Position numbers and translations under genes: made by a program
From: Calditrichia bacterium
GTDB lineage: Bacteria; Calditrichota; Calditrichia; RBG-13-44-9; J075
Reading direction: 5' to 3'
NCBI GenBank assembly: GCA_020635015.1
Contig: JACKAP010000011.1
Coordinates: 39,025-103,024, forward strand
Length of the DNA: 64,000 bases
The notes under the pieces: generated by a model
What the model saw: only the letters and a program-made list of their open reading frames with translations
The model's database searches: none
What the model was told of the DNA's origin: nothing
Shown: positions 761 to 53,251 of the stretch, one piece after another
Layout of the letters: each line of letters begins with the position of its first letter
Position numbering within the stretch: position 1 is the stretch's first letter

Positions 761-836
761 GCCCACGAAACACTCGAAAGGATACGAAACGTAACGATTG
801 ATCATTTTTTAGTGCGCTTTCGTGTATTTCGTGGGC
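761..836. repeat. Short inverted-repeat element with arms built from ~9-nt units (CACGAAACA / CTCGAAAGG / ATACGAAAC)
   Basis: The left arm gcccacgaaacactcgaaaggatacgaaacg (761-791) and the right arm gcgctttcgtgtatttcgtgggc (814-836) are reverse-complementary at the outer ~11 nt and partly further in. The element lies in the pepT/protease intergenic region. Confidence 0.8.
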
Positions 837-965
837 TACTTTTGAAGTCTTTATATCGAACTAAGGCAAAGATAAGATTTCTGAGGGTGAATTGCCAATT
901 GATTGTTTTTCGGGATAAGCCTGCGTATTTTGGCGCGTATATGAAAGGATCGTCAGATTTTTTTT

Positions 966-1038
966 ACATCCCCCCTGTCCCCCCTTCGAAGGGGGGAAGT
1001 GCAGAATCCCCCTTTCGAAGGGGGGACGGGGGGGATGT
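966..1038. repeat. Nested palindrome rich in C6/G6 runs
   Basis: acatcccccctgtccccccttcgaagggggg (966-996) and ccccctttcgaaggggggacgggggggatgt (1008-1038) are near-perfect reverse complements. The left arm contains the perfect 18-bp palindrome CCCCCCTTCGAAGGGGGG (979-996); the right arm has an imperfect copy. Both strands translate to IPPVPPSKGG in the ORF track, a symptom of the symmetry. Confidence 0.9.
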
Positions 1039-1054
1039 TCGCAATTATAAATAT

Positions 1055-3286
1055 TTGATATTGTTCATTTTTTTGATGACCTTCCCCTTGTACCTGCCCG
1101 CTCAGGGACTGCCGGACCGTGCCGCGCCCGCCCGGCTGTGTGCCACCCCGTTTACCGGGGGCGAAGGGCCGGTAAACGCTTGGAAAATCCTTCACCGTAA
1201 TCGCCCGGCCTTTTACCGGCAATTGCTTGCCGATGACGCTCTACTACAGCGGCAGAATTCTGCTCGCAGTGACGTCCGCACCTTCTGGGCGGTGAAGGTG
1301 GGCGACCTCAGTCAGCCAATCGAACCGGAAGATTTTTACCGCGTGGAAGCCACCCGGCGGGCGGAAGGGGAGGGGGTGGTGATCTGGGTGGAGGATGAGA
1401 GCTGGGCACAGGAATACGTCACCCAGGTTGAGGTCGACCGGATCTTCGACGCCCTCACTCGGGAGACCGGCGCCGGCAGCCTCGATCCCGGAGAAGGTAT
1501 TATCGCGATCGAGCGTTCGGTCTTCGGCGAGACGCCCAATAAAGGGGACGACGGGCTGATCCATTTCCTGATCCTGGATATTCAGGACACCTATGATCCC
1601 GATAACAACGTGAGCACTTTCATCGCCGGCTATTTTTTTGCCAATGATCAGGGCGACGGCCCGCGCAGCAACCGCCTCGACCTGCTGTATATCGATGCCT
1701 ACCCGGGCATCTACCGCAAGGAAGGGGACCGCCGCACCGGCACCGTGCTGGCTACCACCGCTCATGAGTTGCAGCATCTGATCCACTACCGCCAGGATCG
1801 CGACGAGGCGACCTGGGTTAACGAAGGCCTTTCCGAACTGGCGGCCTCACTGTGCGGCTACGGCATCGGCCGCCCGCAGCGTTACCTGGAGGATACCGCT
1901 CCGGCGCTGGACGGTTGGGCAAACACCCTGGCCGACTACAGCCGGGCGGGCCTGTGGACGCTCTACCTGGAGGAGCAGTTCGGCACGGAATTCATCCGGG
2001 CGCTCACCGCTGATCCTGCCAACGGCATTGCCGGGATTGAAGCGGCGTTGGCCGTTAGTGGCTTCGGCGAGACATTTAGCAGTGTGTTTGCCGATTGGAA
2101 CATTGCCAACTATCTCAACAATAGCAGCATCAGCGGAGGCCGTTTCGGCTACCGCTCGCCGGATCTGCACGGGCTGCGCGCGAGGGTCCGGGAAGAAACC
2201 GATCGCTTTCCGGCGCGACTGAATGTCGATCTGGAGGAAAACAGCGCGGCCTACTACCGCCTCAGCGGGCGCGATTCCCTGGTACTGGATTTCCAGGGGT
2301 TCTATCACCGTGGTACGCTGATCCGACAAAGGGCTGATACAGCAGAAGTGCTGGATGCATCGGGCGATATGTTCCAACTGCACGGTATTGCTGAAGATGA
2401 CCGGCTCACTCTGGTGCTGAACAACACGTCCGGCGCATCGCAATATGATCTGTGCGCCTACGCCCCATTTGCCCTGCCGCTCCGCCGGGTGGCGTATGAT
2501 GACGGTGAATTCACATCAGGCATTACCGGCCGGGCGCAGGCGGCGCAGCGCTTTGCGGTGCCGGCAGAAGGGGCGGCGCTCACCCGGATCGAATTTTTTA
2601 GCCTGCAGCGCCGCCGGCGGGTGCGGGTGCAGGTGTTTGGAGAGGAGAACGGTCTTCCCGGCCCGGCACTGTACGTACCGCTCGACACCCTTTTTGCCGC
2701 CCGCCGCAGTTGGGTGGAATTGGACCTTCGCCAACCGTTGACCGGCCTTAGTGCCGGGCAGACGCTGTATGTGGCGGTGGAAGCGGACACCCTGGCTTAC
2801 GCCGGCAGCCCATCCGGCAGCGGCATCGCTTACTATCGCCCGGAAGGAGAAGATTGGCGCCCTCTGGAAAATGAAACCAACAGCGCCGGCGAACCGCTGC
2901 GCGGGGTATGGATGATCCGGGCGGTCTTTGCCGGCCCGGCGACCGCTGCTTCCGCTCCCGGCTGCGATCCCGACACCCCGCTGCGTTTTGTCCCGGAAGC
3001 CCTCTATCCCAACCCCTCTCGCGGCGAGCTGACCCTGGAACTGCCCGTCACCGCTGCCGGCGAGGTGCGCCTGACCCTCTACAATCTGCTTGGTCAGCCA
3101 GTTAGCGAATTTCGCCGGGAAGTGCCCGGCGCCGCCCGTCTGATCCGCATTACCTGGCCGAACATCCGCTCCAGCAACGGCCAAACCCTTCCCAGCGGCA
3201 TCTATTTCCTGCGCGCGAAATTCATCGACCGCGCCAGCGGTGCCACCCAAATGGCCGATCCGCAAAAACTGGTGTTGATCCGGTAG
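1055..3286 (+). CDS. Secreted HEXXH zinc metalloprotease (gluzincin-like) with a T9SS C-terminal sorting domain
   Basis: Part of ORF 746..3286. It has HEXXH in TAHELQHLIH followed by NEGLSE, a candidate third zinc ligand. The last ~80 aa look like a T9SS type-A sorting domain (LYPNPSRGELTLEL...SGIYFLRAKF...KLVLIR). Codons 746-1054 read through two palindromic repeat elements, so I moved the start to TTG 1055, which gives the signal-like MILFIFLMTFPLYLPAQG. ATG 1076 is an alternative start. Confidence 0.7.
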   Translation: MILFIFLMTFPLYLPAQGLPDRAAPARLCATPFTGGEGPVNAWKILHRNRPAFYRQLLADDALLQRQNSARSDVRTFWAVKVGDLSQPIEPEDFYRVEATRRAEGEGVVIWVEDESWAQEYVTQVEVDRIFDALTRETGAGSLDPGEGIIAIERSVFGETPNKGDDGLIHFLILDIQDTYDPDNNVSTFIAGYFFANDQGDGPRSNRLDLLYIDAYPGIYRKEGDRRTGTVLATTAHELQHLIHYRQDRDEATWVNEGLSELAASLCGYGIGRPQRYLEDTAPALDGWANTLADYSRAGLWTLYLEEQFGTEFIRALTADPANGIAGIEAALAVSGFGETFSSVFADWNIANYLNNSSISGGRFGYRSPDLHGLRARVREETDRFPARLNVDLEENSAAYYRLSGRDSLVLDFQGFYHRGTLIRQRADTAEVLDASGDMFQLHGIAEDDRLTLVLNNTSGASQYDLCAYAPFALPLRRVAYDDGEFTSGITGRAQAAQRFAVPAEGAALTRIEFFSLQRRRRVRVQVFGEENGLPGPALYVPLDTLFAARRSWVELDLRQPLTGLSAGQTLYVAVEADTLAYAGSPSGSGIAYYRPEGEDWRPLENETNSAGEPLRGVWMIRAVFAGPATAASAPGCDPDTPLRFVPEALYPNPSRGELTLELPVTAAGEVRLTLYNLLGQPVSEFRREVPGAARLIRITWPNIRSSNGQTLPSGIYFLRAKFIDRASGATQMADPQKLVLIR

Positions 3287-4039: not shown

Positions 4040-4042
4040 TTT

Positions 4043-4091
4043 GAATGCGGAATGCGGATTTCGGAGTGCGGAGTGCGGAATGAAAATCTGC
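4043..4091. repeat. Tandem degenerate heptamers GA(A/G)TGCG x7
   Basis: gaatgcg gaatgcg gatttcg gagtgcg gagtgcg gaatgaa aatctgc fills the gap between the convergent ppa and GH1 stop codons. The reverse complement of the same heptamers recurs at 21075-21109. Confidence 0.85.
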
Positions 4092-5414: not shown

Positions 5415-5638
5415 AATAGAACACGGATGACCATTAGAATAAAAAAGGTGTCTATTCAATCTTGCGGATTCTCGCGGATTACTGATTCAGTTAAAAGACA
5501 AAAACAAAGACAAATGAAAGTTTCATGGTCATTTCATTCGTTTTACTACCTGTGTAATAAATCTTCGATAAGACCACGCGAAGCACATCAAAATAAATCA
5601 GCGGGAATCCGCGTCATCCGCGTCATCCGCGTTCTATT
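5415..5638. repeat. MITE-like element with AATAGAAC(A/G)CGGATGAC terminal inverted repeats (ACGCGGATG 9-mer family), copy 1
   Basis: The left end is aatagaacacggatgacc. The right end gaatccgcgtcatccgcgtcatccgcgttctatt is its reverse complement. Interior blocks gttaaaagacaaa and gataagaccacgcgaagca are shared with the copy at 31939-32123. Confidence 0.75.
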
Positions 5639-8461: not shown

Positions 8462-8477
8462 TGGTCACGATTGTTTA

Positions 8478-8637
8478 TTGCACGCAGATTCCACAGATTC
8501 AGCAGATTTTCACAGATCATTCCGTGACATTATAGCATGTGAAGCATCAGTGATGGTCGTATAAACAATGAAATCAATAAACTGATTCTAAAGTCGTATC
8601 TGCGGAAATCTGTTGAATCTGTGAAATCTGCGTGCAA
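8478..8637. repeat. TIR hairpin element of the C(A/G)CAGATT 9-mer type
   Basis: The left arm is ttgcacgcagattccacagattcagcagattttcacagatc. The reverse complement of the right arm is ttgcacgcagatttcacagattcaacagatttccgcagatac. The element sits between the convergent EEP and helicase stop codons. Confidence 0.85.
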
Positions 8638-8645
8638 TTAAGCTT

Positions 8646-11600
8646 TTAAAACAGCTTCAACTGCGAATCATCCTTCGGTTTGGCGGGTTTGTGCGGAGGG
8701 GCTTTTTTGAGCTCTTTGAGGGCGGTTTCGATGTTGCCGAGATAGCGCGAGGGGGTGGGGGCGTGTTTCTTGCCGGCCATGGTGCGCGATTGGGCATGGG
8801 TCAGGATCAGGTGCTCCTGCGCCCGGGTCATACCGACATAGAACAAACGCCGCTCTTCCGCTTCATCGATTTTCATGCCCGGGCGGCGGAAGGGAATCAG
8901 CCCCTCCTCGCAACCCACAATGAATACCACCGGAAATTCCAGCCCCTTGGAGGCGTGCAGGGTCATCAGTGTCACCCGGTCGGCCCGGGGATCATATTGA
9001 TCGATCGCGGTTTGCAGGGCGATATCCTCTAAAAAATCGCCCAGGCGTTTCTCGAAGGGGCGGGCGTGCTGCACCAGGCGGCGGATGAGATAAAGCTCAT
9101 CCCCATCTACCGCTCGCGACTGATCCAGCAGGATAAAAGAGTGGATCTTTGAGATCAACTCGGCCAGCGGCAACTCCATCCGCGCTGCCTGATACTGCTG
9201 CAGGGCCGGCACGATGGTGCTCAGGCGCTTTTCCTGCCCGGCACTGAACAACTGATGCGCTCGGCAATGTTGTACCGCCTCGCGAAAGCCCACGCCGTCC
9301 TGTGCCTGGAAAAGCCCGCCCTGCCGGTCGATCCTTTCCTGCACCTGCGGCAGTGCTTCTCCCAAGATCGTCTCCAGATGAAACAGCGCCGTGGGATTAT
9401 GCAGCAACTGCAGGTAGGCCAGCAGTTCCCGTACCGGCTTTTGTTCAAATATCGGCAATTGTCCAACACTCTGGTAGGGGATGCCGGAGCGCTGGAATGC
9501 CTCGCTGAGCAGTGCATTCTGCGCGCTGAGCCGGTAGAGCACCGCCACATCGCCAAAGCCGCGCTGCGGGGGTTGCCTCATCGGGATCGACCCGCCCGGA
9601 GTCGTGGGAAAAATAGCTGGTGCCGCCAACCATCCGCTCTACCTGATGTACCGCATATTCCGCTTCTGCCCGGTCGGTTGGCGCTTGATAGATCTCCACC
9701 TTGTAGCGCCCGGCAATCCCGGTCCAGATATCCTGCCCCGGGAGGCCGCTGCCGGCGTCGATCACCTGGCGAGAGGCGCTGAGGATCGGCCGGCTGGAGC
9801 GGTAGTTCTGGCGCAGGCGGATTTCCCGGGCAGCGGGATAATCTTCCTGAAACTTCAGGAAATAACTGCGATCCGCTCCCCGGAAGCCGTAGATGGCCTG
9901 ATCCGGATCGCCGATGACACATAGATTCACTTCCGGTGGAGTGAGCAGGCGCAGCAGGCGGTACTGGGCGTAGTTGACATCCTGGTATTCATCCACCGAG
10001 ATCCAGCGGAAGCGGGCCTGGATGCGCTGAAGTATCTCTGGATGGCTCTCCAGCATGGTGGCCGGGAGCAGCAGCAGATCGTCATAGTCGAGCATCTCCC
10101 TTGCTGTCAGGGCGGCCTGATAGGCGTGGTAAACTTCAGGAAAATTTTCCGGAGCGGATATCTGAGCGTTCAATTCCGGATGGCCCGGTGGGAGCAGCAA
10201 ATTCTTGGCTTCGGAAATGGAGGCGAGAAGCCGTCTGGATTTGCGTTCGCCGAGATTCGGGAAGCAGCGTTGGAAAAAGGATTCCCGGTTCCGCTCCCGG
10301 AGGATGGTGAAATTGGGCCCCATGCCGATGACGCCGCCCTCCTCGCGCAGCAGTAATGCGCCGAAGGCGTGGAAGGTGCGGATAACCATTTGCGCCGCAA
10401 TTTCCTCGCCGGTGAGGGCTGCCAGTCGTTCGCGCATTTCCCGGGCGGCCTTGTTGGTGAAAGTGATGGCCAGGATCGCATCCGCTGTGGCTTTGCCGTC
10501 AGCCAGCAGCAGCGCAATCCAGTGGGTGAGTGTGCGGGTTTTGCCGGTTCCCGGCCCGGCGAGAATGAGCAGGTTTTGCTCGTGGCATAGCGCCGCCGCC
10601 TGCTGCTCGGGATTCAAACCGGCCAGCAGCGCTTCGGCGGTTATGCTCGATTGATCCGGCAGCGCTGCTGGAGATCCGGCGAGCATGTTTTGGGGCTTCT
10701 GCGTTTGTTTGCGCCTTGCCGCGTCTACATTCGCCTTCGCAGATTTCTTCGGAAAAGCGGCGGTGGTTTCGGCTGCCGGCGGCGGTTGATCCATCCCGGC
10801 CGGCCGGGTTTTTCCAAACAGATCCAGTTGGGGAGTGAAGATGTCTCTTTCGGATTTTTCGAACAGCTTGATGATCCCAAACTCTCCGTCATAGCCGGCG
10901 TCAATATGCACTTCGCCCCGGCGCATGCGGCGGATCGCTTCTTTGAGCCGGGCACCGCCCAGCCGTTCCAGCTCTTCCAGGGGGGCGTCTTGCAGAATGC
11001 TTAACTCCGGGCCGAGTTTGGCCAGCAGATTGGCATGCAGCCGGCGAACCCCTTTTCGAAGCGGGCCCGACGCCGAGCACCTCCGCCAGCACTTCCGGCA
11101 AGGGTATCAGGCTGACATAAGGATGCCAGCGCTCCGGTTTGACGCCTTCCGGACGGTCGGCCAACTCTGCCACCCGGTGCATCACTCCAACCGTCACCGG
11201 CCGTCCGCAGACCGGGCAGCGGCTATCGTGATCGCGAGTGGTCTGCGGAGCCCAGCGAATGCCGCATTTGCGGTGTCCGTCAAAGTGATATTTCCCTCCT
11301 CCGGAAAAACTCGATCGTGCCCTTGAAACGATCCGGATCGCCGTTTTTCAAAGCATCAAAAATCGCCGGGTAGGAGAGCTCGGTCTCAAAATGGTTTGCC
11401 TCCCGGGCCAGCTTGGGTGGGGAGTGGGCATCGGAATTGGAAACCAGGGTGAAGCGGTCGAGTGCGGAAAGCTGCCAGTTCATCGGCGGATCGGAGGAAA
11501 GGCCGGTCTCCAGGGCAAAAATGTGCGGGGTGAGGTCTTCGAAACATTCCTCGATCCGGTCAAACCCGGATTTGGAGCCAAAGAGAGAAAACCAGGGGTC

Positions 11601-12574: not shown

Positions 12575-12956
12575 CGATGTTAGCTCGCTGTCGCTCGCGA
12601 TGTTAGCTCGCTGTCGCTCGCGATGTTAGCTCGCTGTCGCTCGCGATGTTAGCTCGCTGTCGCTCGCGATGTTAGCTCGCTGTCGCTCGCGATGTCGCTG
12701 TCGCGATGTTAGCTCGCTGTCGCTCGCGATGTTAGCTCGCTGTCGCTCGCGATGTTAGCTCGCTGTCGCTCGCGATGTTAGCTCGCTGTCGCTCGCGATG
12801 TTAGCTCGCTGTCGCTCGCGATGTTAGCTCGCTGTCGCTCGCGATGTTAGCTCGCTGTCGCTCGCGATGTTAGCTCGCTGTCGCTCGCGATGTTAGCTCG
12901 CTGTCGCTCGCGATGTTAGCTCGCTGTCGCTCGCGATGTTAGCTCGCTGTCGCTCG
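12575..12956. repeat. Tandem array of 16 identical 23-bp units CGATGTTAGCTCGCTGTCGCTCG plus one 14-nt truncated unit
   Basis: Counted by hand. Units start at 12575 and repeat every 23 nt. One short unit cgatgtcgctgtcg lies at 12690-12703, and the array resumes at 12704 and ends at 12956. There are no spacers, and the period is not divisible by 3. Confidence 0.95.
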
Positions 12957-13124
12957 CGTTCATAATGATCGCCGAAGGCAAATATCGTCGGCGTAGCCGA
13001 CAAACATCGTGAGCGAAGCGAGCAAATATCGCGCGCAGCGCAAACATCGTGAGCGAAGCGAACAAACATCGCGCGCAGCGCAAACATCGTGAGCGAAGCG
13101 AGCAAACATCGCCGGCTACGCCGG
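12957..13124. repeat. Block of degenerate, opposite-orientation relatives of the 23-bp unit (18- and 22-nt units forming a ~40-nt higher-order repeat)
   Basis: The block contains tgagcgaagcgagcaaatatcg cgcgcagcgcaaacatcg tgagcgaagcgaacaaacatcg cgcgcagcgcaaacatcg tgagcgaagcgagcaaacatcg gccggctacgccggc. The reverse complement of a 22-nt unit matches the 23-bp unit at about 20 of 23 positions. The block ends exactly at the ggt stop codon. Confidence 0.9.
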
Positions 13125-14837: not shown

Positions 14838-14938
14838 ATTGCCCAAAATTATCCTCCATTCTGCCGTGATAAGGCGTGAATTGATCGTTGATGGGAAGCG
14901 TGATAAATGAAAGAGCGCTCTGCGTACCATCTGCATAT

Positions 14939-14979
14939 AAATAATCCTACCCGGCGCCGTTTGCCGGGTAGGATTATTT
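14939..14979 (-). terminator. Candidate intrinsic terminator hairpin downstream of the TonB-dependent receptor gene
   Basis: A 17-bp perfect stem, aaataatcctacccggc (14939-14955) paired with gccgggtaggattattt (14963-14979), encloses a 7-nt loop. The stem ends are A/T rich. It lies 40 nt after the stop at 15019 on the minus strand. Confidence 0.6.
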
Positions 14980-15018
14980 AATGATTCAAAAGCTCAAAAT
15001 CAAGCTTTACCACAGGAA

Positions 15019-17938: not shown

Positions 17939-19069
17939 TTATTGGCGGTGGTTCAGCAGGTTGTGCCGGCGAAGAATTTCCTTCACTTTCTCATGGGGTA
18001 ATGCTTTGATATCTCCGCGGTGGCCGCGCATATCTTCCGCCGCAAACAAGGAATGGTAGATCGCTTCCTCAGTCGCTTCCGCGGCTGCTAAAAAGAGGGG
18101 AGATAGATGATCGTCGCGGAGAATCTTTCTGGAAACTGTGCTGGCATCCGATTGATAGGGGTATCGAAGGTCCGGCGTGGTGGAAAAAGCAATCACATAA
18201 TCACCGCTGCCATGGGTGGAGACGCCTCCGGCTTTCACCAGGCCGTAGAGCGCCCGCCGGGCCAGGCGCTTGAGTTGGCGGGCATCCAGCGGGGCATCGG
18301 TCGCCACGATGATCATGCAGGAGCCGTCATGGATTGCTTCAAGGGTTTCGCGCAGGTAGTATTGCTGCAGTTCCTGTCCGACCGGCGCGCCGTTGATCTG
18401 CAGGATCCCGCCAAAATTGGTCTGCACCAGCACTCCCACGGTATACCCTCCCAACTTGTCGGGCAGTTGTCGTGAGGCAGTGCCGATCCCGCCCTTGAAA
18501 CCGAAACAGATCGTACCGGTGCCGGCGCCGACATTGCCCTCCGAAACCGGCCCTCCGGCCGCAGCTTGCAGTGCCTGCAGCACATGTGTTTCCTTCACGT
18601 AGCCGGCGCGGATGTTGTTGAGATAGCCGTCGTTGGTCTCTCCCACCAGCGGATTGACCGAACGAACCGCCTCGTTTCCGGGTAGATTCAGGGTATAATC
18701 GATCAGCGCTTTGGCGGCGACCGGCACGCTGAGTGTATTGGTGAGAACGATCGGCGTCTCCAGATTTCCCAATTCTTCTATCTGGGTCGATCCGGCCAAC
18801 TTGCCGAAACCATTGGCGACATAGATTGCAGCGGGCACTTTTTCCTGGAAAATGTTACCCGGGTGAGGCACAATCGCGGTGACGCCGGTGCGGCAATCAT
18901 TTCCTTCGATCAGGGTGACCTGCCCCACGGTCACCCCGGCCACATCGGTGATGCTGTTGAGCGGCCCCGGCGGCAGCACTCCGGTCTTCAGTTGCCGCCA
19001 CCAGGGTGCTCCCCCCTGGGCATTCACAACAATCGACATAATTAATACCAACCAAATACATTTAGCCAC
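17939..19069 (-). CDS. P1-family peptidase (DmpA / L-aminopeptidase D-esterase-like, S58)
   Basis: Part of ORF 17939..19246. It shows GPLNSITDVAGVTVGQVTL, GETNDGYLNNIRAGYV and GAGTGTICFGFKGGIGTASR. The long ORF overlaps nhaC and reads through a repeat element. I propose GTG 19069, which gives the signal-like AKCIWLVLIMSIVVNAQG. ATG 19039 is an alternative. Confidence 0.75.
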   Translation of the reverse strand: MAKCIWLVLIMSIVVNAQGGAPWWRQLKTGVLPPGPLNSITDVAGVTVGQVTLIEGNDCRTGVTAIVPHPGNIFQEKVPAAIYVANGFGKLAGSTQIEELGNLETPIVLTNTLSVPVAAKALIDYTLNLPGNEAVRSVNPLVGETNDGYLNNIRAGYVKETHVLQALQAAAGGPVSEGNVGAGTGTICFGFKGGIGTASRQLPDKLGGYTVGVLVQTNFGGILQINGAPVGQELQQYYLRETLEAIHDGSCMIIVATDAPLDARQLKRLARRALYGLVKAGGVSTHGSGDYVIAFSTTPDLRYPYQSDASTVSRKILRDDHLSPLFLAAAEATEEAIYHSLFAAEDMRGHRGDIKALPHEKVKEILRRHNLLNHRQ

Positions 19070-19159
19070 GGATTCACACGGATTTACACTGATTCTGTTG
19101 TTTCCTGGGAACAAGATCATGCTTTCATCCGTGTTTCTCTGGTTAAATCCGTGGCTAAA
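19061..19159. repeat. TIR hairpin element of the CCACGGATT 9-mer type
   Basis: The left arm is tttagccacggattcacacggatttacactgatt. The right arm is catccgtgtttctctggttaaatccgtggctaaa. The right terminus plus flank, aaatccgtggctaaaattcaa, is almost identical to that of the copy at 23426-23519. Confidence 0.8.
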
Positions 19160-19192
19160 ATTCAATATGTCATTGCATTGATAACTTAAAAC

Positions 19193-19226
19193 ACTCTGTG
19201 CTCTCTGTGGCTCTGTGGCAAAAATC
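19193..19226. repeat. Solo arm of the GCCACAGAG 9-mer type
   Basis: cactctgtgctctctgtggctctgtggcaaaaa directly abuts the nhaC stop codon. It has the same motif and the same ttttgccacagag terminus as the arms at 53141-53251. Confidence 0.75.
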
Positions 19227-20823: not shown

Positions 20824-20990
20824 AAGTTTGTTCGCTGTCGCTCACGATGTTTGCTCGCAGTTGCTCGCGATATTCGTTCGCTGTCGCTCACGATGTTTGC
20901 TCGCAGTTGCTCGCGATATTTGTTCGCTGTCGCTCACGATGTTTGCTCGCAGTTGCTCGCGATATTTGTTCGCTGTCGCTCACGATGTTG
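20824..20990. repeat. About 3.5 copies of a 46-bp (2 x 23) higher-order repeat of the GATGTTTGCTCGC family
   Basis: The unit (gatatttgttcgctgtcgctcac gatgtttgctcgcagttgctcgc) is repeated. It gives rise to the spurious overlapping ORFs 20641-21340 in the track. Confidence 0.9.
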
Positions 20991-21018
20991 ATTTTAGATC
21001 CAATATCAATTACCTTTT

Positions 21019-21067
21019 CCCTTCGCCCTTCGCCCTTCGCCCTTCGCCCTTCGCCCTTCGCCCTTCG
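21019..21067. repeat. Perfect heptamer array (CCCTTCG) x7
   Basis: Counted by hand from 21019 to 21067. Confidence 0.95.
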
Positions 21068-21073
21068 CGCCTT

Positions 21074-21286
21074 TCATTCCGCACTCCGCATTCCGCACTC
21101 CGCATTCGCCTCATCCCTCACCCAGATCCGGCAGAATTTTACCCCGCTGCGGGAATTGATTTGAACATCCGGCGTGCCCGGTGGGATGTCCGAGCCGCAG
21201 ACCATGATCCGTTTGTAACCGTTGCAGCATTTATCGGCGTCGTTGGGCGATTTCCATACATGACGCTTGGTTCGGCAGAAGAACAT
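21074..21286 (-). CDS. Small cysteine-rich protein (70 aa), function unknown
   Basis: ORF MFFCRTKRHVWKSPNDADKCCNGYKRIMVCGSD... The ATG lies 2 nt after the stop of the upstream 4-TM gene (GTC TGA GC ATG), suggesting translational coupling. The C-terminal ~12 codons are encoded by a heptamer repeat, so the native end is uncertain. Confidence 0.4.
   Translation of the reverse strand: MFFCRTKRHVWKSPNDADKCCNGYKRIMVCGSDIPPGTPDVQINSRSGVKFCRIWVRDEANAECGMRSAE
21075..21109. repeat. Heptamers CATTCCG/CACTCCG x5 (reverse complement of the 4043-4091 array)
   Basis: The sequence is cattccg cactccg cattccg cactccg cattcgc. It overlaps the last codons of the small ORF 21074..21286. Confidence 0.9.
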
Positions 21287-23399: not shown

Positions 23400-23425
23400 G
23401 ATGATTTTGGAGAGAATTTACTGAT

Positions 23426-23519: not shown

Positions 23520-23539
23520 AAATTCAATTGGAGAACCGG

Positions 23540-29940: not shown

Positions 29941-29945
29941 AAAAA

Positions 29946-30035: not shown

Positions 30036-30055
30036 AACTTACATGTTTCAATGAC

Positions 30056-30238: not shown

Positions 30239-30244
30239 CGTTTT

Positions 30245-31938: not shown

Positions 31939-32123
31939 GAATAGAACGCGGATGACGCGGATGGTGCGGATTTACGCGGATGACTGCTTATGTTAAAAGA
32001 CAAAGACTAAAGGATACTTTGTGGCCTATGCATTTGTTTGCGACGTTTTCGGTAAATTTTTGATAACACCACGCGAAGCATCATAAAAAATCCGTGAGAA
32101 TCCGCGTCATCCGCGTTCTATTC
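31939..32123. repeat. MITE-like element with GAATAGAACGCGGATGACGCGGATG TIRs, copy 2
   Basis: The left end is gaatagaacgcggatgacgcggatggtgcggatttacgcggatgac. The reverse complement of the right end is gaatagaacgcggatgacgcggattctcacggatt. The interior shares gttaaaagacaaa and gataacaccacgcgaagca with copy 1. It lies between the convergent TspO-like and LOV genes. Confidence 0.85.
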
Positions 32124-34982: not shown

Positions 34983-35038
34983 TGGGTGTATGGGTTAATG
35001 GGTGTATGGGTTAATGGGTGTATGGGTGTATGGGTGTA
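34983..35038. repeat. Octamer array TGGGT(G/T)(T/A)A x7
   Basis: The array reads tgggtgta tgggttaa tgggtgta tgggttaa tgggtgta tgggtgta tgggtgta. It begins 11 nt upstream of the SDR/DUF2867 start codon (minus strand). A related array lies at 50574-50605. Confidence 0.9.
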
Positions 35039-35039
35039 G

Positions 35040-35059
35040 GGTCGAGTCGCGACTCGACC
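35040..35059. repeat. Perfect 20-bp palindrome GGTCGAGTCGCGACTCGACC
   Basis: All 10 base pairs were checked by hand. It lies between the octamer array and the 14-mer array, inside a putative operon. Confidence 0.95.
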
Positions 35060-35083
35060 TCACGGTGCCAAATTCGACCGTCA

Positions 35084-35125
35084 ACCATTGCGCATTTACC
35101 ATTGCGCATCTACCATTACCCATTA
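35084..35125. repeat. 14-mer array ACCATTGCGCAT(T/C)T x3 (last unit degenerate)
   Basis: The array reads accattgcgcattt accattgcgcatct accattacccatta. The last unit overlaps the stop codon of the SRPBCC gene. A related sequence lies at 50640-50681. Confidence 0.85.
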
Positions 35126-37767: not shown

Positions 37768-37811
37768 GATTGTTCCCTTCAGTTTAGAGATATTGTTTGC
37801 ATGTTTTGCAT

Positions 37812-37829
37812 GCGCGTTTTGAGCGTTTT
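37812..37829 (-). promoter_or_regulatory. Direct-repeat motif AAAACGCTCAAAACGCGC facing ribA (candidate operator)
   Basis: The minus strand reads aaaACGCTCAAAACGCGCAtgcaaaacatgcaaacaatatctctaaactgaagggaacaatcATG(ribA). This is a mirror-image partner of the motif at 37874-37888. Confidence 0.45.
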
Positions 37830-37873
37830 AATGATAGCGAATCAAAAGCCCATAATCAAGTAAAATAAAAAAA

Positions 37874-37926
37874 CGCTCAAAACGCTCATTTTTGGTTGAC
37901 TACCTCCGCGCGGTATGTTATATTTG
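37874..37926 (+). promoter_or_regulatory. Candidate promoter/operator of the CarH-like gene: CGCTCAAAACGCTCA - TTGACT - 17 nt - TATATTTG
   Basis: The region reads aaaaCGCTCAAAACGCTCAtttttggTTGACTacctccgcgcggtatgtTATATTTGaat. The -10/-7 box ends about 40 nt before ATG 37968. It has the same architecture as 30348-30399. Confidence 0.6.
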
Positions 37927-41426: not shown

Positions 41427-41566
41427 TTGTCCACGGATTACACGGATTGACACGGATGGATTGATGGTGCGAATGATTCGGGAGTTCTTGGAAATAGGTA
41501 TAAAAAGTTTATCTTTTATTTCCGGAACAGAACAAATCAATCAGTGTTAATCCGTGTAATCCGTGG
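41427..41566. repeat. MITE-like 140-bp element of the CCACGGATT 9-mer type
   Basis: The left end is ttgtccacggattacacggattgacacggat. The right end is atcagtgttaatccgtgtaatccgtgg. The termini are nearly identical to the compact hairpin at 30245-30309 but enclose an ~85-bp AT-rich interior. Confidence 0.9.
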
Positions 41567-41595
41567 ATTCAAAAAACAGCTTTGAGGTATATGCC

Positions 41596-42140: not shown

Positions 42141-43457
42141 TTAGTTGGCGATGATTTCCGCGCCCAGCGCTTTATTGCCGGCGCCGCTGACCAATCCCTT
42201 TGCGAATACAGTGTAAATCTTACCATCTTCCAAAACAATACCGGGCAGGTCAAGCACGACGGTCGAGGTACCGGCCAGCCGAACCTGCAGATTATAGGTA
42301 GCGGCATCCAGCGGGGTAAAGTCGGTCGCTTGCTTAAATTCGTAATTACCGAACACCACGCTGCCGTCGGTCAGGGTGATATCGACCGCCGGGGCATCGG
42401 GCGAAAGGTGGATGAAGCGCACATGGGCTTTACCGGCTGCCGGGGCGGTCAGGTCGTCTTCGAACACCAGCGGGGTGATCTTGCTGAGCACGTCAACCGC
42501 GAAGATCGAGTAGTTCTGATCAGCCGTAAATACCAGGTCGGCTTCGATCACGGTCTGGGAAGTACCGCTCGCATTTACCTTGATGTTGCGGGTGCCGGGA
42601 TTCACTTCCAGGTAGCCGGTGTTGGCGGGAAATTCCAGGGCGGCGCTGTTTACCACCGCGTCATCCAGCAGCAGGTCGACACCGGGCGCATCGGGAGAAG
42701 CATGAATCACCATCACATTGGCCCGGGCATCGGTGGTCAGATCGACGAAGGCATCACCGGCATTATTGTCGACAAACACCCGCACAGCAAAGGGATAGTT
42801 GGTGTCGGTCAGGGTGCCGTGCGCCACTACGGTGTAAACCGAGCCGTTGGTCACCGTGATCGGATCAAATACCACCACTTCGGTATCCGAACCGGTCGGC
42901 GTTACCACGAAGGTATAAGTGCCGGCATCGACTTCGATATAGTCGGTGAACTGCTCAAAGGGCACATTTGTGAACACCGCCGGGCCGCTGCCGCTATTCA
43001 GTTTCACATCCACCGCCGGGGCATCGGGAGCGGTGTGCACCAGGCGCACTTTTGCTTTGCTGCTATTGGCGCTGCGGGCATCTTCACTCACGATGGCACC
43101 GATATTGGCCAGCTCATTGACGGCATATACCGTATATTCTTTATCCTGCTCCAGCGTCAGATCCACATCGATCACGATCGGGCTGGTCGCGCCGGTAGGG
43201 GATACCTGAATGTTACGAGTGCCGGCGGGTACCTCGGCATAACCGGAAGTTTCGCCATACGCGAGGTTGGCAATCGCCACGCTTCCGTCAACCCATATAT
43301 CAACTGCCGGGGCATCGTAGCTGGTGTGAATGACACGCACCTTCGCATTGCCGTCCGGCTCATTGTTGTTTACCGGGTTGCTGTCACTATCGCACGCAGT
43401 CAGCATGATTGCGGCCATCGCGACCATCACCACACTAAAAAACTTAAAACGCTTCAT
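42141..43457 (-). CDS. Lipoprotein made of four DUF4397-like repeats
   Basis: ORF of 438 aa with the lipobox MLTAC. A repeated module, (V/L)R(V/F)IH(T/A/L)SPDAP(A/G)VD(I/V/L)...Y.E(V)..G.....V...G, occurs four times. Confidence 0.8.
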   Translation of the reverse strand: MKRFKFFSVVMVAMAAIMLTACDSDSNPVNNNEPDGNAKVRVIHTSYDAPAVDIWVDGSVAIANLAYGETSGYAEVPAGTRNIQVSPTGATSPIVIDVDLTLEQDKEYTVYAVNELANIGAIVSEDARSANSSKAKVRLVHTAPDAPAVDVKLNSGSGPAVFTNVPFEQFTDYIEVDAGTYTFVVTPTGSDTEVVVFDPITVTNGSVYTVVAHGTLTDTNYPFAVRVFVDNNAGDAFVDLTTDARANVMVIHASPDAPGVDLLLDDAVVNSAALEFPANTGYLEVNPGTRNIKVNASGTSQTVIEADLVFTADQNYSIFAVDVLSKITPLVFEDDLTAPAAGKAHVRFIHLSPDAPAVDITLTDGSVVFGNYEFKQATDFTPLDAATYNLQVRLAGTSTVVLDLPGIVLEDGKIYTVFAKGLVSGAGNKALGAEIIAN

Positions 43458-43545: not shown

Positions 43546-43642
43546 TGAGCGTTTTGAGCGTTTTCGAAAGCAATAATATAACGGTGGAGTTCAAATGTCA
43601 AGCAAAAAATCAAAAATATCGCTCAAATCGCTCAAATTTGAG
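43546..43642. repeat. Inverted pair of the (A)ACGCTCAA 9-mer direct repeat
   Basis: The left arm tgagcgttttgagcgtttt (43546-43564) is the reverse complement of AAAACGCTCAAAACGCTCA. The right arm is atcgctcaaatcgctcaaa (43618-43636), followed by tttgag. The motif is the same as at 30348, 37812 and 37874. Confidence 0.85.
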
Positions 43643-43837
43643 TTTTTGGGGCACTCACACCATCGGAAGCAGTGCCGGTTTGAGCAGGCGCATTTTCACC
43701 ATCGTCATAAAAAAAAATCTGCCAGAGTGGAATTTAAAAATCATGGGAACGATCTAGGCGTGTTGACATTTAGCCGGTCGGATTGGTGGTGGAGAAGGGC
43801 AGGGGGAGGGGCGGGCTGTGGGCGTGTATTTTTGAAA

Positions 43838-43914
43838 GGATGAAGGATGAAGGATAAAGGATGAAGGATGAAGGATGAAGGATAAAGGATGAAGGATGAA
43901 GGATGAAGGATGAA
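43838..43914. repeat. Heptamer array (GGATGAA / GGATAAA) x11
   Basis: Counted by hand: 2 x ggatgaa, ggataaa, 3 x ggatgaa, ggataaa, 4 x ggatgaa. Confidence 0.95.
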
Positions 43915-43967
43915 GAAAATCTTGCGAAAAGTGCTTGGTCATGGAAATAGATTTCGTTTTGTTCTAA

Positions 43968-44037
43968 CATCCAACATCCAACATCCAATATCCAACATCC
44001 AACATCCAACATCCAACATCCAACATCCAACATCCAG
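43968..44037. repeat. Heptamer array (CATCCAA) x10, partly complementary to the GGATGAA array
   Basis: Counted by hand; the variants are tatccaa and catccag. It ends 6 nt from the aminotransferase stop codon. GGATG pairs with CATCC in every unit (5 of 7 positions). Confidence 0.95.
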
Positions 44038-44043
44038 CATCTG

Positions 44044-49001: not shown

Positions 49002-49178
49002 AAATAGAACGCGGATGACGCGGATGACACGGATTCTCGCAGATAAGAGTTGGTTACATTGTTAACTGTCACATTGCTAAGCTTTCGTTTGTATTCCACT
49101 TAATGTGGTTGAAATACGACAAGCAATGTAAACATGTAATCTTTCATCTGTGTAAATCCGCGTCATCCGCGTTCTATT
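49002..49178. repeat. Element with AATAGAACGCGGATGACGCGGAT TIRs, copy 3 (different interior)
   Basis: The left end is aaatagaacgcggatgacgcggatgacacggattctcgcagat. The reverse complement of the right end is aatagaacgcggatgacgcggatttacacagatg. The interior is unrelated to copies 1 and 2. Confidence 0.85.
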
Positions 49179-50508: not shown

Positions 50509-50573
50509 GAGATTACCTCCTGAAGTGATTAAAAATGTGTGATTGAGAAATCCGTATTCGTTTTAATGTCGTG

Positions 50574-50605
50574 TTAATGGGTGAATGGGTTGATGGGTTA
50601 ATGGG
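50574..50605. repeat. Octamer array T(T/G)(A/G)ATGGG x4
   Basis: The array reads ttaatggg tgaatggg ttgatggg ttaatggg and is related to the array at 34983-35038. Confidence 0.85.
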
Positions 50606-50639
50606 TAAATACAATTTCAAAGATCGATAATCTACCCCA

Positions 50640-50681
50640 CCAATTTACCATTGCGCAATGACCATTAAGCATTTACCATTA
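50640..50681. repeat. ACCATTGCGCA-type units (relative of 35084-35125)
   Basis: ccaatttaccattgcgcaatgaccattaagcatttaccatta. It has the same left/right pairing with an octamer array as in the 34983-35125 intergenic region. Confidence 0.75.
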
Positions 50682-50793: not shown

Positions 50794-50980
50794 GATGTTT
50801 GCTCGCCGGCGCAGCCAGCAAATATCACGAGTGACGCGAGTAAACATCGCCGAAGGCAAACATCGTGAGCGAAGCGAACCAACATCGCTGGCGCAGTCAG
50901 CAAATATCGCCGCAGGCAAATATCACGAGCGCAGCGAGTAAACATCGCGCGGAGCGCAAACATCGCCGGCGCCGCCGGCA
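50794..50980. repeat. Degenerate array of the GATGTTTGCTCGC / GCGAGCAAACATCG family ending at the glgX stop codon
   Basis: One forward unit (gatgtttgctcgcc) is followed by about 8 reverse-orientation units ending in (a/t)atc(g/a). The terminal aaacatcgccggcgccgccggcaCTA parallels aaacatcgccggctacgccggCTA at the ggt stop. Confidence 0.85.
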
Positions 50981-53110
50981 CTACCCCGCAATCAACACCA
51001 CCACAGATCGCGGAGCGGCGGTATAACGCGAGGGATCGGGCAGGCGCTCCTCCCGGCCCGGCTCGACGATATCGCGCGGGGCATCGAAGGCGGTGTCGAG
51101 CACCCGGAGCCACTGCTGGCGGAAGAGAAGGCGGGGAAGCTGGAAGGTGAGGGGACCGTGGTAGGCATTGACGATGATGTAAATATCGCGGTCGGCGGGA
51201 TTGCCGTAGAGCTCCAGGGCCAGGGAGCGGGAGTGCTCCGACCAATCCGGCTGGTTAGCCTGAATCCCGTGCCAGCGGATGTGGGGGTGGTTCTCTCCGT
51301 GATGGTAGTCGAAGCTGGAGCGGCGCAGGTTGGGATGCTGCTTGCGGAACTCGATCAGCCGCTTGAAGAAGCGCAGCAGATCCTGCGATTCCCGGGTGGG
51401 CTGCCAGTTAATCCAACTGATGGGATTGTCGTGGCAGTAAGCGTTGTTGTTGCCGCCCTGGGTGCGGCCGAATTCATCGCCGGCCAGGATCATCGGCACC
51501 CCATGGGAGAGCAGCAGCAGGGCGGCATGATTTTTCATCTGCCGCCGGCGCAGGGCGTTGATCTCCGGATCGTCGCTCGGGCCCTCCTCGCCGCAGTTCC
51601 AACTGAAATTGGCATCGCTGCCGTCGCGGTTTTCTTCCCCGTTCTCCCAGTTATGCTTTTCGTTATAAGATACCAGGTCGCGCAAAGTAAAGCCATCGTG
51701 ACTGGTAATAAAGTTGATGCTGTGATAAGGCGCCCGCCCGCTGCCCTGGTAGAGATCGGCGCTGCCGCTCAGGCGAGTGGCCAGGGCGGAGACCAGCCCG
51801 TCTTCACCGCGCAGGAAGCGGCGGACGTCATCGCGGAAATGACCGTTCCATTCCGCCCAGCGCCCCCAGGCCGGGAAGCGCCCCACCTGGTAGAGCCCGG
51901 CGGCGTCCCAGGCCTCGGCGATCAGCTTGGTGTTGGCCAGGATCGGATCGTGGGCGATGCGTTCGATCAGCGGGGGATCGGCCAGCACCGATCCGTCGCG
52001 TCCCCGCCCCAGGATGGCGGCGAGATCGAAACGGAAGCCGTCGACGTGCATCTCGGTGACCCAATAATGCAGACACTCCAGGATCAGATCGCGCACGTTG
52101 GGATGGTTACAGTTAACGGTGTTGCCGCAGCCGGAATAGTTGTGATACATGCCGGTCACCGGATCGATGATGTAATAAATCGAATTGTCCAACCCTCGGA
52201 AGGAATAAGTCGTGCCGCGCTCATCCCCTTCGCCGGTGTGGTTGAAGACGATATCCAGAATCACCTCGATGCCGGCTTTGTGCAGGGCTTTGACCATCTC
52301 CTTGAACTCCCGCACCGGATTGCTGTCGCGGTTGCGGCTGGCGTAGGAAGCCTTGGGCGCAAAGAAGCCGATGGTGTTGTACCCCCAGAAATTGAGCAGC
52401 GGGGCACCGGAGTCGGGATGGAAGCGGTCGCTGTCCATCTCGTCAAATTCGTTGATCGGCAACAGTTCCACTGCCGTCACGCCCAGCTCTTTCAGGTAGG
52501 GAATCTTCTCGATCACTCCCCGGTAGGTGCCGGGGTGGGCCACTCCGGAGGAGGGATCGATGGTAAAGCCGCGCACGTGCATCTCGTAGATCACCGCATC
52601 GTGCAGCGGCAGGTTCAGCGGCTGATCGTATTCCCAGTCAAACGCATCGTTTACCACGATGGAGCGGCGATGATTGCGGGTAGGCGGGGTGCCGTTCTCT
52701 CCATTGCGCCGGTAAAGCTGTCCCCACTCCGGCGCGCCGGTATACGCTTTGGCGTAGGGGTCCAACAACACGATCTCCGGCTGGTAGCGGTGCACCAGCG
52801 GCTGCAGGTTGGGCTGACGGTCGACCCGGTAGCCGTAGCGGATCTCCCGGGAGATGCCCTGAATGAACATATGCCAGATGTCGCCGGTCTTATTGAAACG
52901 GGGATCGAAGGGCAATTCCAGCACCGATTCATTCTCCATCGGAAGATAGATCACCAGCGTCACCGCAGTGGCGTGTTTGGAGAGGAGTGCAAAATTGATT
53001 CCGTTCTCCCGGATTTCGCTGCCAAACGGCCGCGGCGATCCGCGCATGATCTGAAAATCGCTGCCGATGATGGTGTCGAGTTTTTCCTGCTTTGGCGTGC
53101 TTTCCCGCAT
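50981..53110 (-). CDS. glgX: Glycogen debranching enzyme (GH13 subfamily, GlgX type)
   Basis: Part of ORF 50981..53275. It shows GYNTIGFFAPKASYAS, VILDIVFNHTGEG, GFRFDLAAILGR, LIAEAWD and NFITSHDGFTLRDL. I set the start at ATG 53110 (MRESTPKQ...) because the upstream tracked codons read through a repeat element. Confidence 0.92.
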   Translation of the reverse strand: MRESTPKQEKLDTIIGSDFQIMRGSPRPFGSEIRENGINFALLSKHATAVTLVIYLPMENESVLELPFDPRFNKTGDIWHMFIQGISREIRYGYRVDRQPNLQPLVHRYQPEIVLLDPYAKAYTGAPEWGQLYRRNGENGTPPTRNHRRSIVVNDAFDWEYDQPLNLPLHDAVIYEMHVRGFTIDPSSGVAHPGTYRGVIEKIPYLKELGVTAVELLPINEFDEMDSDRFHPDSGAPLLNFWGYNTIGFFAPKASYASRNRDSNPVREFKEMVKALHKAGIEVILDIVFNHTGEGDERGTTYSFRGLDNSIYYIIDPVTGMYHNYSGCGNTVNCNHPNVRDLILECLHYWVTEMHVDGFRFDLAAILGRGRDGSVLADPPLIERIAHDPILANTKLIAEAWDAAGLYQVGRFPAWGRWAEWNGHFRDDVRRFLRGEDGLVSALATRLSGSADLYQGSGRAPYHSINFITSHDGFTLRDLVSYNEKHNWENGEENRDGSDANFSWNCGEEGPSDDPEINALRRRQMKNHAALLLLSHGVPMILAGDEFGRTQGGNNNAYCHDNPISWINWQPTRESQDLLRFFKRLIEFRKQHPNLRRSSFDYHHGENHPHIRWHGIQANQPDWSEHSRSLALELYGNPADRDIYIIVNAYHGPLTFQLPRLLFRQQWLRVLDTAFDAPRDIVEPGREERLPDPSRYTAAPRSVVVLIAG

Positions 53111-53140
53111 TATCGATCCGTTCCCTCTGTTTAAGGTCTT

Positions 53141-53251
53141 TTGCCACAGAGGCACAGAGAACACAGAGAGCTGACAAATGACAACGAACAACTGACAACT
53201 GACAACTGACAACTGATAACTAACTCTGTGATCTCTGTGCCTCTGTGGCAA
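53141..53251. repeat. Inverted repeat of GCCACAGAG 9-mers enclosing a CAACTGA heptamer array
   Basis: The left arm is ttgccacagaggcacagagaacacagaga. The reverse complement of the right arm is ttgccacagaggcacagagatcacagagtta. The loop contains caactga x4 plus variants. It lies in the divergent glgX/amylase region. Confidence 0.9.

Follow-up and report, generated by a model that had tools for sequence, protein, structure and literature searches.

The window analysed here, a stretch of 64,000 nt (C3:39025-103024) from the draft genome of a Calditrichia bacterium (5.68 Mb in 56 contigs, 55.8% GC), codes for type IX secretion system (T9SS)-sorted proteins and for TonB-dependent receptors with CarboxypepD_reg domains, a content consistent with the Fibrobacteres-Chlorobi-Bacteroidetes (FCB) group. 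Between its genes lie many arrays of a 9-base unit with a common C-R-C-R-G-A core, here called CRC arrays. These repeats are the two arms of an abundant and horizontally spread family of intergenic hairpins, and in one case in the window the arms bracket a gene for a GxxExxY protein. A check of coordinates found the described repeats at all the loci listed in the original prediction, which had been made from the letters of the window. They correspond to the following elements.

761-836, CACGAAA-type hairpin with arms at 761-789 and 808-836 and an 18-nt loop; RNA fold −28.4 kcal/mol, z −4.9.
5415-5632, element of the ACGCGGATG family: left terminus AATAGAAC plus ACGGATG, then degenerate 5′ units at 5455-5480, a core of ~110 nt and a 3′ arm at 5605-5632 made of three ATCCGCGTC units, which abuts the stop of the gene at 5634.
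8474-8641, CGCAGATT/CACAGATT hairpin with arms at 8474-8517 and 8598-8641 (44 nt, 89% complementary) and an 80-nt loop; convergent genes on either side.
19061-19159, CACGGATT hairpin with arms at 19061-19093 and 19127-19159, flanked by TTTAGC...GCTAAA; fold z −5.5.
19192-19219, solo 3′-type arm, CTCTGTG three times plus GGCAAAAA, with no 5′ partner within 800 nt.
23425-23520, CACGGATT/CACAGAT hairpin with arms at 23425-23458 and 23487-23520, occupying the gap from the stop at 23399 to the next gene; fold z −8.0.
29470-30035, plus strand, gene-bearing GxxExxY cassette with a 5′ arm at 29511-29551, a 3′ arm at 29944-29983, an additional 5′-type arm at 29996-30035 and a 3′-type fragment at 29470-29490.
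29563-29940, plus strand, GxxExxY protein gene of this cassette (125 aa, PD-(D/E)XK; PF13366 E 2.6e-42, TIGR04256 E 2.7e-43).
30249-30309, near-perfect CACGGATT hairpin with 30-nt arms at 30249-30278 and 30280-30309, 97% complementary and separated by 1 nt; fold −48.2 kcal/mol, z −14.3.
31939-32123, element of the ACGCGGATG family, convergent genes on either side; termini AATAGAAC...GTTCTATT, core ~110 nt.
41430-41567, CACGGATT hairpin with 33-nt arms at 41430-41462 and 41535-41567 and a 72-nt loop; fold z −8.9.
49003-49178, mixed-arm element with termini AATAGAAC...GTTCTATT.
53140-53252, CACAGAG hairpin (8-9-nt units) with arms at 53140-53168 and 53224-53252, flanked by TTTGC...GCAAA; fold z −8.9.

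RNA folding of six of these elements gave z-scores between −4.9 and −14.3, and no Rfam family matched the window at gathering thresholds. Within the window, C[AG]C[AG][AG]A cores follow one another on the same strand at a spacing of 8-10 nt 35 times, while 200 dinucleotide-preserving shuffles of the window averaged 3.0 and never exceeded 8. Over the whole genome we counted 500 spacings of 8 nt, 1,038 of 9 nt and 534 of 10 nt (2,072 in total) compared to 18, 23 and 29 (70 in total) in a Markov-3 simulated genome. The predicted tandem repetition of a shared core thus stands out clearly from shuffled sequence. Nine is indeed the commonest spacing, but the real range is 8-10 nt, and the remark that the period is not codon-like does not quite hold, nine being a multiple of three, even if the elements are intergenic. 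An extra peak of core spacing at 19 nt can be attributed to arms in which the middle unit has decayed.

Tandem Repeats Finder detected 1,266, 831, 1,038 and 330 arrays of period 7, 8, 9 and 10, respectively, in the genome, a 5-10-fold excess over the simulated genome for periods 7-9; arrays of period 10 are not enriched at the whole-genome level (330 compared to 245 simulated). According to our own gene calls, which like our strand calls and arm-subtype labels are crude, about 80% of the 7- and 8-nt arrays and 40% of the 9-nt arrays are intergenic, the remaining 9-nt arrays being coding triplet repeats. An inverted partner within 800 nt was found for between 27% (61/225, period 10) and 63% (470/744, period 8) of the non-coding arrays, and for less than 1% in a reversed, non-complemented control. 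After merging, the genome contains ~1,036 paired hairpins with tandem-repeat arms (median arm 26 nt, median loop 48 nt, loops spanning 12-260 nt), which occupy ~147 kb of the ~814 kb of intergenic DNA. The CRC nonamer hairpins are a subset of these; others are made of 6-, 7-, 8- or 23-nt units. The same architecture is built from arrays of period 7, 8, 14, 16 and 23 nt, which are even more numerous genome-wide, and further unit types include GGGGCAT, GGATGCT, AAGGATG, GGTTGTT, AATGGGTG and 23-mers.

The logo of the unit over 695 arms of the genome reads C-R-C-R-G-A-K-n-n, with three units per arm in 421 cases, two in 255 and four in 19. Past the outermost unit the palindrome continues for another 2 nt, a clamp present in 96-97% of copies, and then fades to background by ~8 nt. 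On either strand, the 5′ flank is rich in T and the 3′ flank in A. The unit flavours had been considered otherwise unrelated and maintained in parallel as separate families. This view has to be abandoned since single arms mix the types: the arm at 49010-49046 combines CGCGGAT, CACGGAT and CGCAGAT (CGCGGATGA CGCGGATGA CACGGATTCT CGCAGATAA), and the arm at 29513-29551 contains both CGCAAAGG and CGCAGAGA units (CGCAAAGGG CGCAAAGGAGG CGCAGAGAAC CGCAGAGAA). The C-R-C-R-G-A-K-n-n repeats belong to a single superfamily of intergenic foldback elements, whose arms they form.

A striking feature of these elements is their polarity. In this genome the 5′ arm is invariably of CRCRGA type and the 3′ arm of TCYGYG type, with counts of 60:0 for ACGCGGATG, ~70:0 for CACGGATT and 69:0 for CACAGAG; other unit types are just as strict (AATGGGTG 62:0, GGATGCT 45:0) or nearly so (GGGGCAT 128:2). 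Among hairpins with a short loop, 88 are canonical and none is reversed, compared to 41 canonical and 25 reversed in the other 85 genomes of the phylum that we surveyed; 20 of these 25 come from two genomes, and most of the reversed cases listed read as the junction between two adjacent elements. On viral contigs the ratio is 7:0. Loop sequences form families tied to the arm type. Thus, a core of ~110 nt is common to 27 ACGCGGATG elements (core cluster 4), including that at 31939-32123; the loop of 5415-5632 appears, by eye, to belong to the same 27-copy cluster. Loop cores are equally frequent in both orientations, and nesting of one element in another, which might have indicated an insertion preference, is rare (25/1,036 hairpins). 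Around 322 CRC elements we found no direct-repeat signal of 3 nt or more at any offset, hence no target-site duplication, and the only thing seen at their ends is a palindromic extension. Convergent gaps contain at least one element in 39% of cases, divergent gaps in 26% and tandem gaps in 24%.

The protein encoded at 29563-29940, in the gene-bearing cassette at 29470-30035, scores 144 and 147 bits against the PF13366 and TIGR04256 profiles (curated cut-offs 22 and 35), and its translation shows intact GPGLLESAY and D..ExK motifs. The gene has a GC content of 39% compared to 56% for the genome, and such cargo genes generally lie at 33-48% (genome 55.8%). The genome holds three PF13366 (GxxExxY) genes and five PF05635 genes, the latter annotated as '23S rRNA intervening sequence (IVS) protein'. 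Inverted tandem-repeat arms lie on both sides of 3/3 PF13366 and 4/5 PF05635 genes, that is, of 7/8 cargo genes; the remaining PF05635 gene, on contig C6, has an array downstream only, in the 160 nt examined. The arms of the three GxxExxY genes are all of CRC type (CGCAAAGG/CGCAGAGA, CGCAGAGGG and ACGCGGATG), and those of the PF05635 genes consist of 6-, 7-, 8- or 23-nt units. The full-length form of the element is a small cassette in which two arms bracket the gene of a predicted PD-(D/E)XK nuclease, GxxExxY, and a sister architecture with arms of 6-8-nt units carries the gene of the four-helix-bundle IVS protein.

This correspondence between arm and cargo extends over the phylum. From other genomes 40 loci of each family were taken, and arms were scored where detectable. 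The best period of the GxxExxY arms is 9-10 nt in 13/20 cases; the rest have mostly a period of 8, one of 7, and nearly all of these arms are nonetheless made of CAC- or CGC-initiated purine-rich units. By contrast, periods of 9-10 nt are absent from the 26 PF05635 arms, of which eleven have a period of 7, fourteen of 8 and one of 6 (Fisher p = 7.6e-7). As with all our cross-genome statistics, phylogenetic non-independence is ignored in this value. The arm period is thus specific to the cargo, 9-10 nt for GxxExxY and 6-8 nt for the IVS protein. GxxExxY sequences are also more similar within an arm subtype (48.0% identity) than between subtypes (40.5%), a difference reached in 0/5,000 label permutations, and the nearest neighbour has the same arm subtype in 23/29 cases; the subtype labels were assigned by us from the arm sequences. 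The link with GxxExxY nucleases, suggested earlier as something to look for, is in this way borne out in both the period of the arms and the similarity of the proteins.

Arms and gene are inherited together, also between phyla. Homologues of the window protein with 63-78% identity occur in Cloacimonadota, Ignavibacteria, Flavobacterium, Aureibaculum and Azospira, the last three at 63-67%. We read the cassettes of these three, and all (3/3) have CGCAAAG/CGCAGAG/CACAAAG arms in the correct polarity. They sit in operons, one with batA-batB-like genes, one with nuoF-nuoG and one with a deoxyhypusine-synthase gene next to argS. More generally, the cargo gene is oriented with its neighbours rather than against them in 33:5 GxxExxY and 36:7 PF05635 loci, and in 20/20 cases where both flanking genes share a strand. 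The cassettes are thus co-oriented inside host transcription units, a small open reading frame (ORF) enclosed by a stem and reading with the host transcript, as in IVSs of the S23p type. All those examined lie between protein-coding genes, none in helix 25 or 45 of 23S rRNA. Co-orientation suggests that the cassette is expressed by read-through; no sign of a promoter of its own turned up, though promoters were not scanned for.

Not every GxxExxY gene is enclosed by one big stem; some have a complete short hairpin on each side, the two being in direct orientation. In a metagenome-assembled genome of Azospira (locus L234, 300-880) the order is 5′ arm, 3′ arm, gene, 5′ arm, 3′ arm, and the window cassette at 29470-30035 is a partial version of this arrangement. 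A short ORF fragment on the minus strand (30056-30252) lies between the cassette and the near-perfect hairpin at 30249, and the entire region 29470-30309 could be an inserted island.

The gene-less hairpins have travelled far. The exact 30-base CACGGATT hairpin (CACGGATTnCACGGAT...ATCCGTGnAATCCGTG) is found at at least 118 loci in the reference-genome collection, and the matches listed cover more than 15 phyla and the archaeon Candidatus Methanoperedens. Listed hosts include Bacteroides stercorirosoris, B. congonensis, a metagenome-assembled genome of B. thetaiotaomicron, Flavobacteriia, Verrucomicrobiota, Acidobacteriota, Chloroflexota, Planctomycetota, Desulfobacterota, Alpha- and Betaproteobacteria, Nitrospirota, Gemmatimonadota and Ignavibacteriales. 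All the matches listed have the same T-rich/A-rich palindromic flanks, and among them 1/118 adjoins a GxxExxY gene. The hairpin also occurs on viral contigs. Within the phylum, the number of three-unit CRC arrays varies from 0 to 307 per genome (86 genomes, our own being the highest), and a congener contains 38, an 8-fold spread within the genus. Genomes with more arrays tend to have more PF13366 genes (Spearman 0.41, p = 1e-4), as one would expect from the proposed link between element abundance and nuclease, and the correlation with PF05635 counts is weaker (0.27); neither value is corrected for phylogeny.

Elements are not conserved at orthologous gene junctions between genera. The junction between the photolyase-related gene and the gene for GTP cyclohydrolase II measures 15 nt in the window and in the congener but contains an octamer hairpin in two genomes of another genus, and the gap after the TonB receptor (41430-41567) is occupied by the CACGGATT hairpin here and by arrays of a different flavour in the relative G013. 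On a shorter time scale, ten metagenome contigs of the same natural population all carry the elements of the window, and the cassette at 29470-30035 is invariant in them. The element at 31939-32123 does vary, by a G-to-A transition that turns CGCGGA into CGCAGA and by the gain or loss of a single whole 9-nt unit of the 3′ arm. From these variants it follows that flavours interconvert by transitions and that arms change by whole units. The family is thus characterized by spread across phyla, amplification in particular lineages and unit-level indels in a natural population.

We consider it moderately probable that the gene-less elements are miniatures of a selfish, IVS-like foldback cassette. 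There are ~350 such copies in the genome, 11 of them in the window, and they would be derivatives of gene-bearing cassettes that were amplified in this lineage and that change through unit slippage and transitions. At the DNA level, the three-unit arrays would be putative binding sites for the cassette's own protein, whose presence on the arrays might promote copying or insertion. At the transcript level, the arms could pair to a stem of 27-33 bp that RNase III would be able to cut, as in the intervening sequences of 23S rRNA; a precedent is the 28-bp stem of the Coxiella IVS, which is cut by RNase III in mid-stem (PMC4990558). Removal of the stem by RNase III would allow the cassette to be tolerated inside operons. 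A common recognising or generating machinery, already suspected in the original prediction, is pointed to by the three units per arm, the fixed polarity and the conservation of sequence across phyla, and the different periods associated with two unrelated cargo proteins favour a recognition geometry over a generic stem. GxxExxY cassettes share the arm type and the ATAGAAC terminus of the miniatures, but GxxExxY is not a known transposase and the ~110-nt core of the miniatures is missing from the cognate cassette.

Several observations weigh against this interpretation. We found no transposition event, no strain-level pair of empty and filled sites and no target-site duplication, and throughout the ten contigs of the natural population the elements of the window keep fixed positions. 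The nuclease genes are outnumbered ~100:1 by gene-less copies, and PF13366 genes are still present in 22/24 genomes that lack CRC arrays. GxxExxY is without demonstrated activity; its AlphaFold structure model is of moderate quality (predicted local distance difference test, pLDDT, 76), no solved structure of a relative was detectable by sequence, and the model has no significant neighbour in the PDB. Its weak neighbours, at E 0.1 or worse, are Bax1, VRR-NUC, FAN1 and a Cas4-like protein; that structure-specific PD-(D/E)XK nucleases (Bax1, VRR-NUC, FAN1) come first among these is at most a hint. The ~110-nt core of the ACGCGGATG miniatures is absent from the one cognate cassette of the genome, which is itself degenerate, and a derivation of this core from that cassette by internal deletion was rejected because only the arms and ~15 nt match. 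Finally, the association between arm and cargo could reflect common descent of the cassettes rather than recognition by the protein.

A bolder version of the same idea can be put forward only tentatively, and we find it rather doubtful as a whole. GxxExxY proteins might be the nucleases of unrecognised mobile, intervening-sequence-like cassettes of bacteria and archaea, whose arms would be removed from RNA by RNase III and read in DNA by the nuclease, thereby driving copying. This would be an analogue of the partnership between an intron and its homing endonuclease. The nuclease would read the three 9-10-bp units of each arm as duplex, hairpin or cruciform and bring about copying to further intergenic sites, the four-helix-bundle IVS proteins, which are related to the diversity-generating retroelement protein Avd, would do likewise for 7-8-bp units, and the thousands of gene-less hairpins would be non-autonomous offspring.

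Of the other explanations, the one that fares best, though we think it unlikely, makes the hairpins RNA elements beneficial to the host, with stems that serve as RNase III sites, 3′-end stabilisers or operon insulators and small genes that are mere passengers. The hairpins are indeed very stable, a quarter of the arms start within 9 nt of a stop codon, the cassettes are co-oriented with host genes and the equivalent stem of the 23S rRNA IVS is cut by RNase III. However, the elements bear no mark of selection on one transcript strand: among 706 elements between co-directional genes the mismatches compatible with G•U pairing show no excess over A•C on the sense strand (529 sense compared to 503 antisense). 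The two arms of a given element are hardly more complementary to each other than to same-flavour arms of other copies, so that there is no covariation evidence for a selected structure. The occupation of 26% of divergent intergenic regions also argues against a role in the RNA, as do the lack of positional conservation between genera and the different flavours found at orthologous gaps. Moreover, structure alone requires neither the same 8-mer in more than 15 phyla (among the matches listed) nor a fixed polarity.

It appears improbable that the elements are arrays of binding sites for a global regulator or a nucleoid-associated protein of the host, the reading proposed for Geobacter metallireducens by Aklujkar et al. 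(PMC2700814). Such a role would account for the conservation of sequence and not just of pairing, and for three sites per arm roughly one helical turn apart. It is difficult to reconcile with counts of 0-307 among the genomes of one phylum and an 8-fold spread within a genus, with the same sequence in more than 15 phyla (matches listed), one archaeon and viral contigs, and with a preference for convergent gaps (39%), which have no promoters. The probable operator TGAGCGTTT, unlike the hairpin elements, is conserved in position in relatives. In the window this motif forms inverted 9-mer pairs with AAAACGCTC at 37810-37889 and 43546-43637, which adjoin the gene of a MerR/B12-binding (LitR/CarH-like) regulator and the gene at 42141-43457 and keep their position in three relatives (G013, G010 and G001). 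These pairs look like the operator of a light-responsive regulon that includes the photolyase-related gene and GTP cyclohydrolase II.

Still harder to sustain is the idea that no recognising machinery is involved and that the arrays arose neutrally in AT-rich spacers through replication slippage and palindrome-prone repair: the polymorphism in unit number in the population, the many unpaired arrays and the many different unit sequences are what slippage would produce, but it leaves unexplained the identical units in distant phyla, the strict polarity, the modal three units per arm, the family-specific loop cores and the cargo-specific periods. Least credible of all are ordinary intrinsic terminators or repetitive extragenic palindromic (REP) elements served by a REP-associated tyrosine transposase (RAYT), since these intergenic palindromes, although they often lie just past stop codons in a genome with one Y1 transposase gene, have no T-run (U-run in RNA) after the stem, lie between a T-rich 5′ and an A-rich 3′ flank on both strands and show no terminator-like avoidance of divergent gaps (26% occupied), as the prediction had anticipated in doubting independent terminators, and since the sole intact Y1 gene has a different repeat beside it. 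This RAYT-like gene (PF01797, C2:59905-60252) has on either side a distinct REP-like palindrome family, ccccgacctgacggtcgggggaaacgtgggacgcc (ccccgacctg.cggtcgggg...).

The elements are not wholly new, although the original prediction did not recognise in them a described repeat class. Paired inverted arrays in G. metallireducens were listed in 2009 by Aklujkar et al. as putative global-regulator sites, in classes of four octamers, of three tandem 9-mers TCTCCGTS[Y] (reverse complement CACGGAGA) and of five heptamers (PMC2700814). Those sites resemble ours in that they are paired arrays on opposite strands at variable distance, with several unit lengths per genome, intergenic and multicopy; CACGGAGA fits C-R-C-R-G-A, like the present units, and the three tandem 9-mers in opposite-strand pairs that define class 2 are found here as well, as compared with the published description (PMC2700814). 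They differ in that the supplementary alignments were read as putative regulator sites, and that no link to GxxExxY or IVS genes was made, polarity was not noted and other phyla were not surveyed (PMC2700814). A 2010 paper of the same group on G. bemidjiensis noted families of intergenic multicopy sequences. In the literature that we searched, no paper links such arrays to GxxExxY or IVS-protein genes, and searches with the unit sequences returned primers only.

The IVSs of 23S rRNA (Coxiella, Leptospira; S23p ORF) are similar in having a small ORF in the loop of a ~28-bp stem of terminal inverted repeats, co-oriented with the host transcript, with atypical GC content and a sporadic, apparently horizontal distribution, and RNase III cleaves their stem (Warrier et al. 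2016, PMC4990558). Unlike them, the present elements lie between protein-coding genes rather than in rRNA helices, the cargo of the nonamer class is a PD-(D/E)XK gene instead of a four-helix-bundle one, and most copies are gene-less. With miniature inverted-repeat transposable elements (MITEs; Correia/NEMIS, ERIC, RUP) and REP or bacterial interspersed mosaic elements (BIMEs) they share a short, multicopy, intergenic, palindromic and non-coding nature, lineage-specific expansion and occurrence in either orientation, and the 1,036 paired elements combine terminal inverted repeats, small size and high copy number in the way that characterizes MITEs. They differ from these by the lack of a target-site duplication or recognisable transposase in our searches, and by arms that are arrays of 7-10-nt units, with a sequence common across phyla, instead of a unique inverted repeat. 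In the Foldback (FB) transposons of Drosophila, too, the long terminal inverted repeats consist of short tandem repeats, and most copies are non-coding. This similarity in tandem-built inverted repeats and mostly non-coding copies is an analogy only, host domain, size and proteins being different.

Short tandemly repeated repetitive (STRR) heptamers of cyanobacteria were reportedly described by Mazel et al. in 1990. TAACTGA heptamers occur in Beggiatoaceae, Cyanobacteria and Bacteroidetes with no evident mechanism of transfer (MacGregor 2015, PMC4679880). Both heptamer repeats are intergenic like the present elements, with a patchy distribution across phyla that suggests horizontal spread, but they are described as direct repeats, and the description mentions neither an inverted partner nor a fixed polarity nor a cargo gene. 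The TAACTGA heptamer corresponds to the AACTGAC/AACTGAT array in the loop of our CACAGAG hairpins. At 53140-53252 this loop is a CTGACAA/AACTGAC heptamer array (53171-53221), and the AACTGAC/AACTGAT arrays, of which there are ~118 genome-wide, typically form the unpaired loop of such hairpins.

The window also contains hairpins of the sister architecture and unpaired arrays.

12575-13112, ~16 tandem 23-nt units facing ~6 inverted units of 20-22 nt; the 23-nt unit type also flanks a PF05635 gene elsewhere in the genome.
34983-35117, ATGGGTGT/ATGGGTTA octamer arm, gggtcgagtcgcgactcgaccc mini-hairpin and a diverged partner arm.
43836-44041, eleven AAGGATG units opposite eleven AACATCC units, complementary at 5/7 positions per unit.
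50558-50681, GTTAATGG/ATGGGTTG octamer arm with an ACCATT-type partner.
20826-21107, unpaired arrays of 23-nt units, then eight CCCTTCG, then CATTCCG/CACTCCG heptamers.
4043-4082, unpaired GAATGCG/GAGTGCG heptamer array.

The ~sixteen 23-nt units at 12575-12958 form two perfectly identical runs with one imperfect unit near 12696 between them, and this near-perfect identity over ~380 nt suggests a very recent expansion or an assembly collapse. Two other palindromes were noted. A perfect hairpin with 18-nt arms at 14938-14980 (TAAATAATCCTACCCGGC / GCCGGGTAGGATTATTTA), between two minus-strand genes, lacks tandem units and differs in kind from the CRC family. A palindrome rich in C and G runs, with 32-nt arms, at 966-1038 (ACATCCCCCCTGTCCCCCCTTCGAAGGGGGGA / ...GGGGGGACGGGGGGGATGT) lies in the nominal 5′ end of the ORF at 746-3286, and the true start of that T9SS-sorted protein is probably downstream. 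On the minus strand at 8646-10926, a UvrD/Rep-type helicase is split into two overlapping ORFs, 9445-10926 with the N-terminal helicase domain and 8646-9629 with UvrD_C, which represents either a frameshifted gene or an assembly error.

To our knowledge, no function is known for GxxExxY (PF13366/TIGR04256) or for the '23S rRNA IVS protein' (PF05635), both of which are very large families. Their genes are often present in many copies per genome. The gene-less forms of the cassettes can occupy a fifth of a genome's intergenic DNA. The hairpins also have practical consequences: they break assemblies, yield spurious ORFs, for example when CACGGATTA repeats are read as HGLTRI-type peptides, and can be mistaken for terminators or regulator sites. 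For the protein families themselves, each is now tied to a repeat geometry, GxxExxY to units of 9-10 nt and the IVS protein to units of 6-8 nt, and this association between arm and cargo provides a first testable context for the large GxxExxY family.

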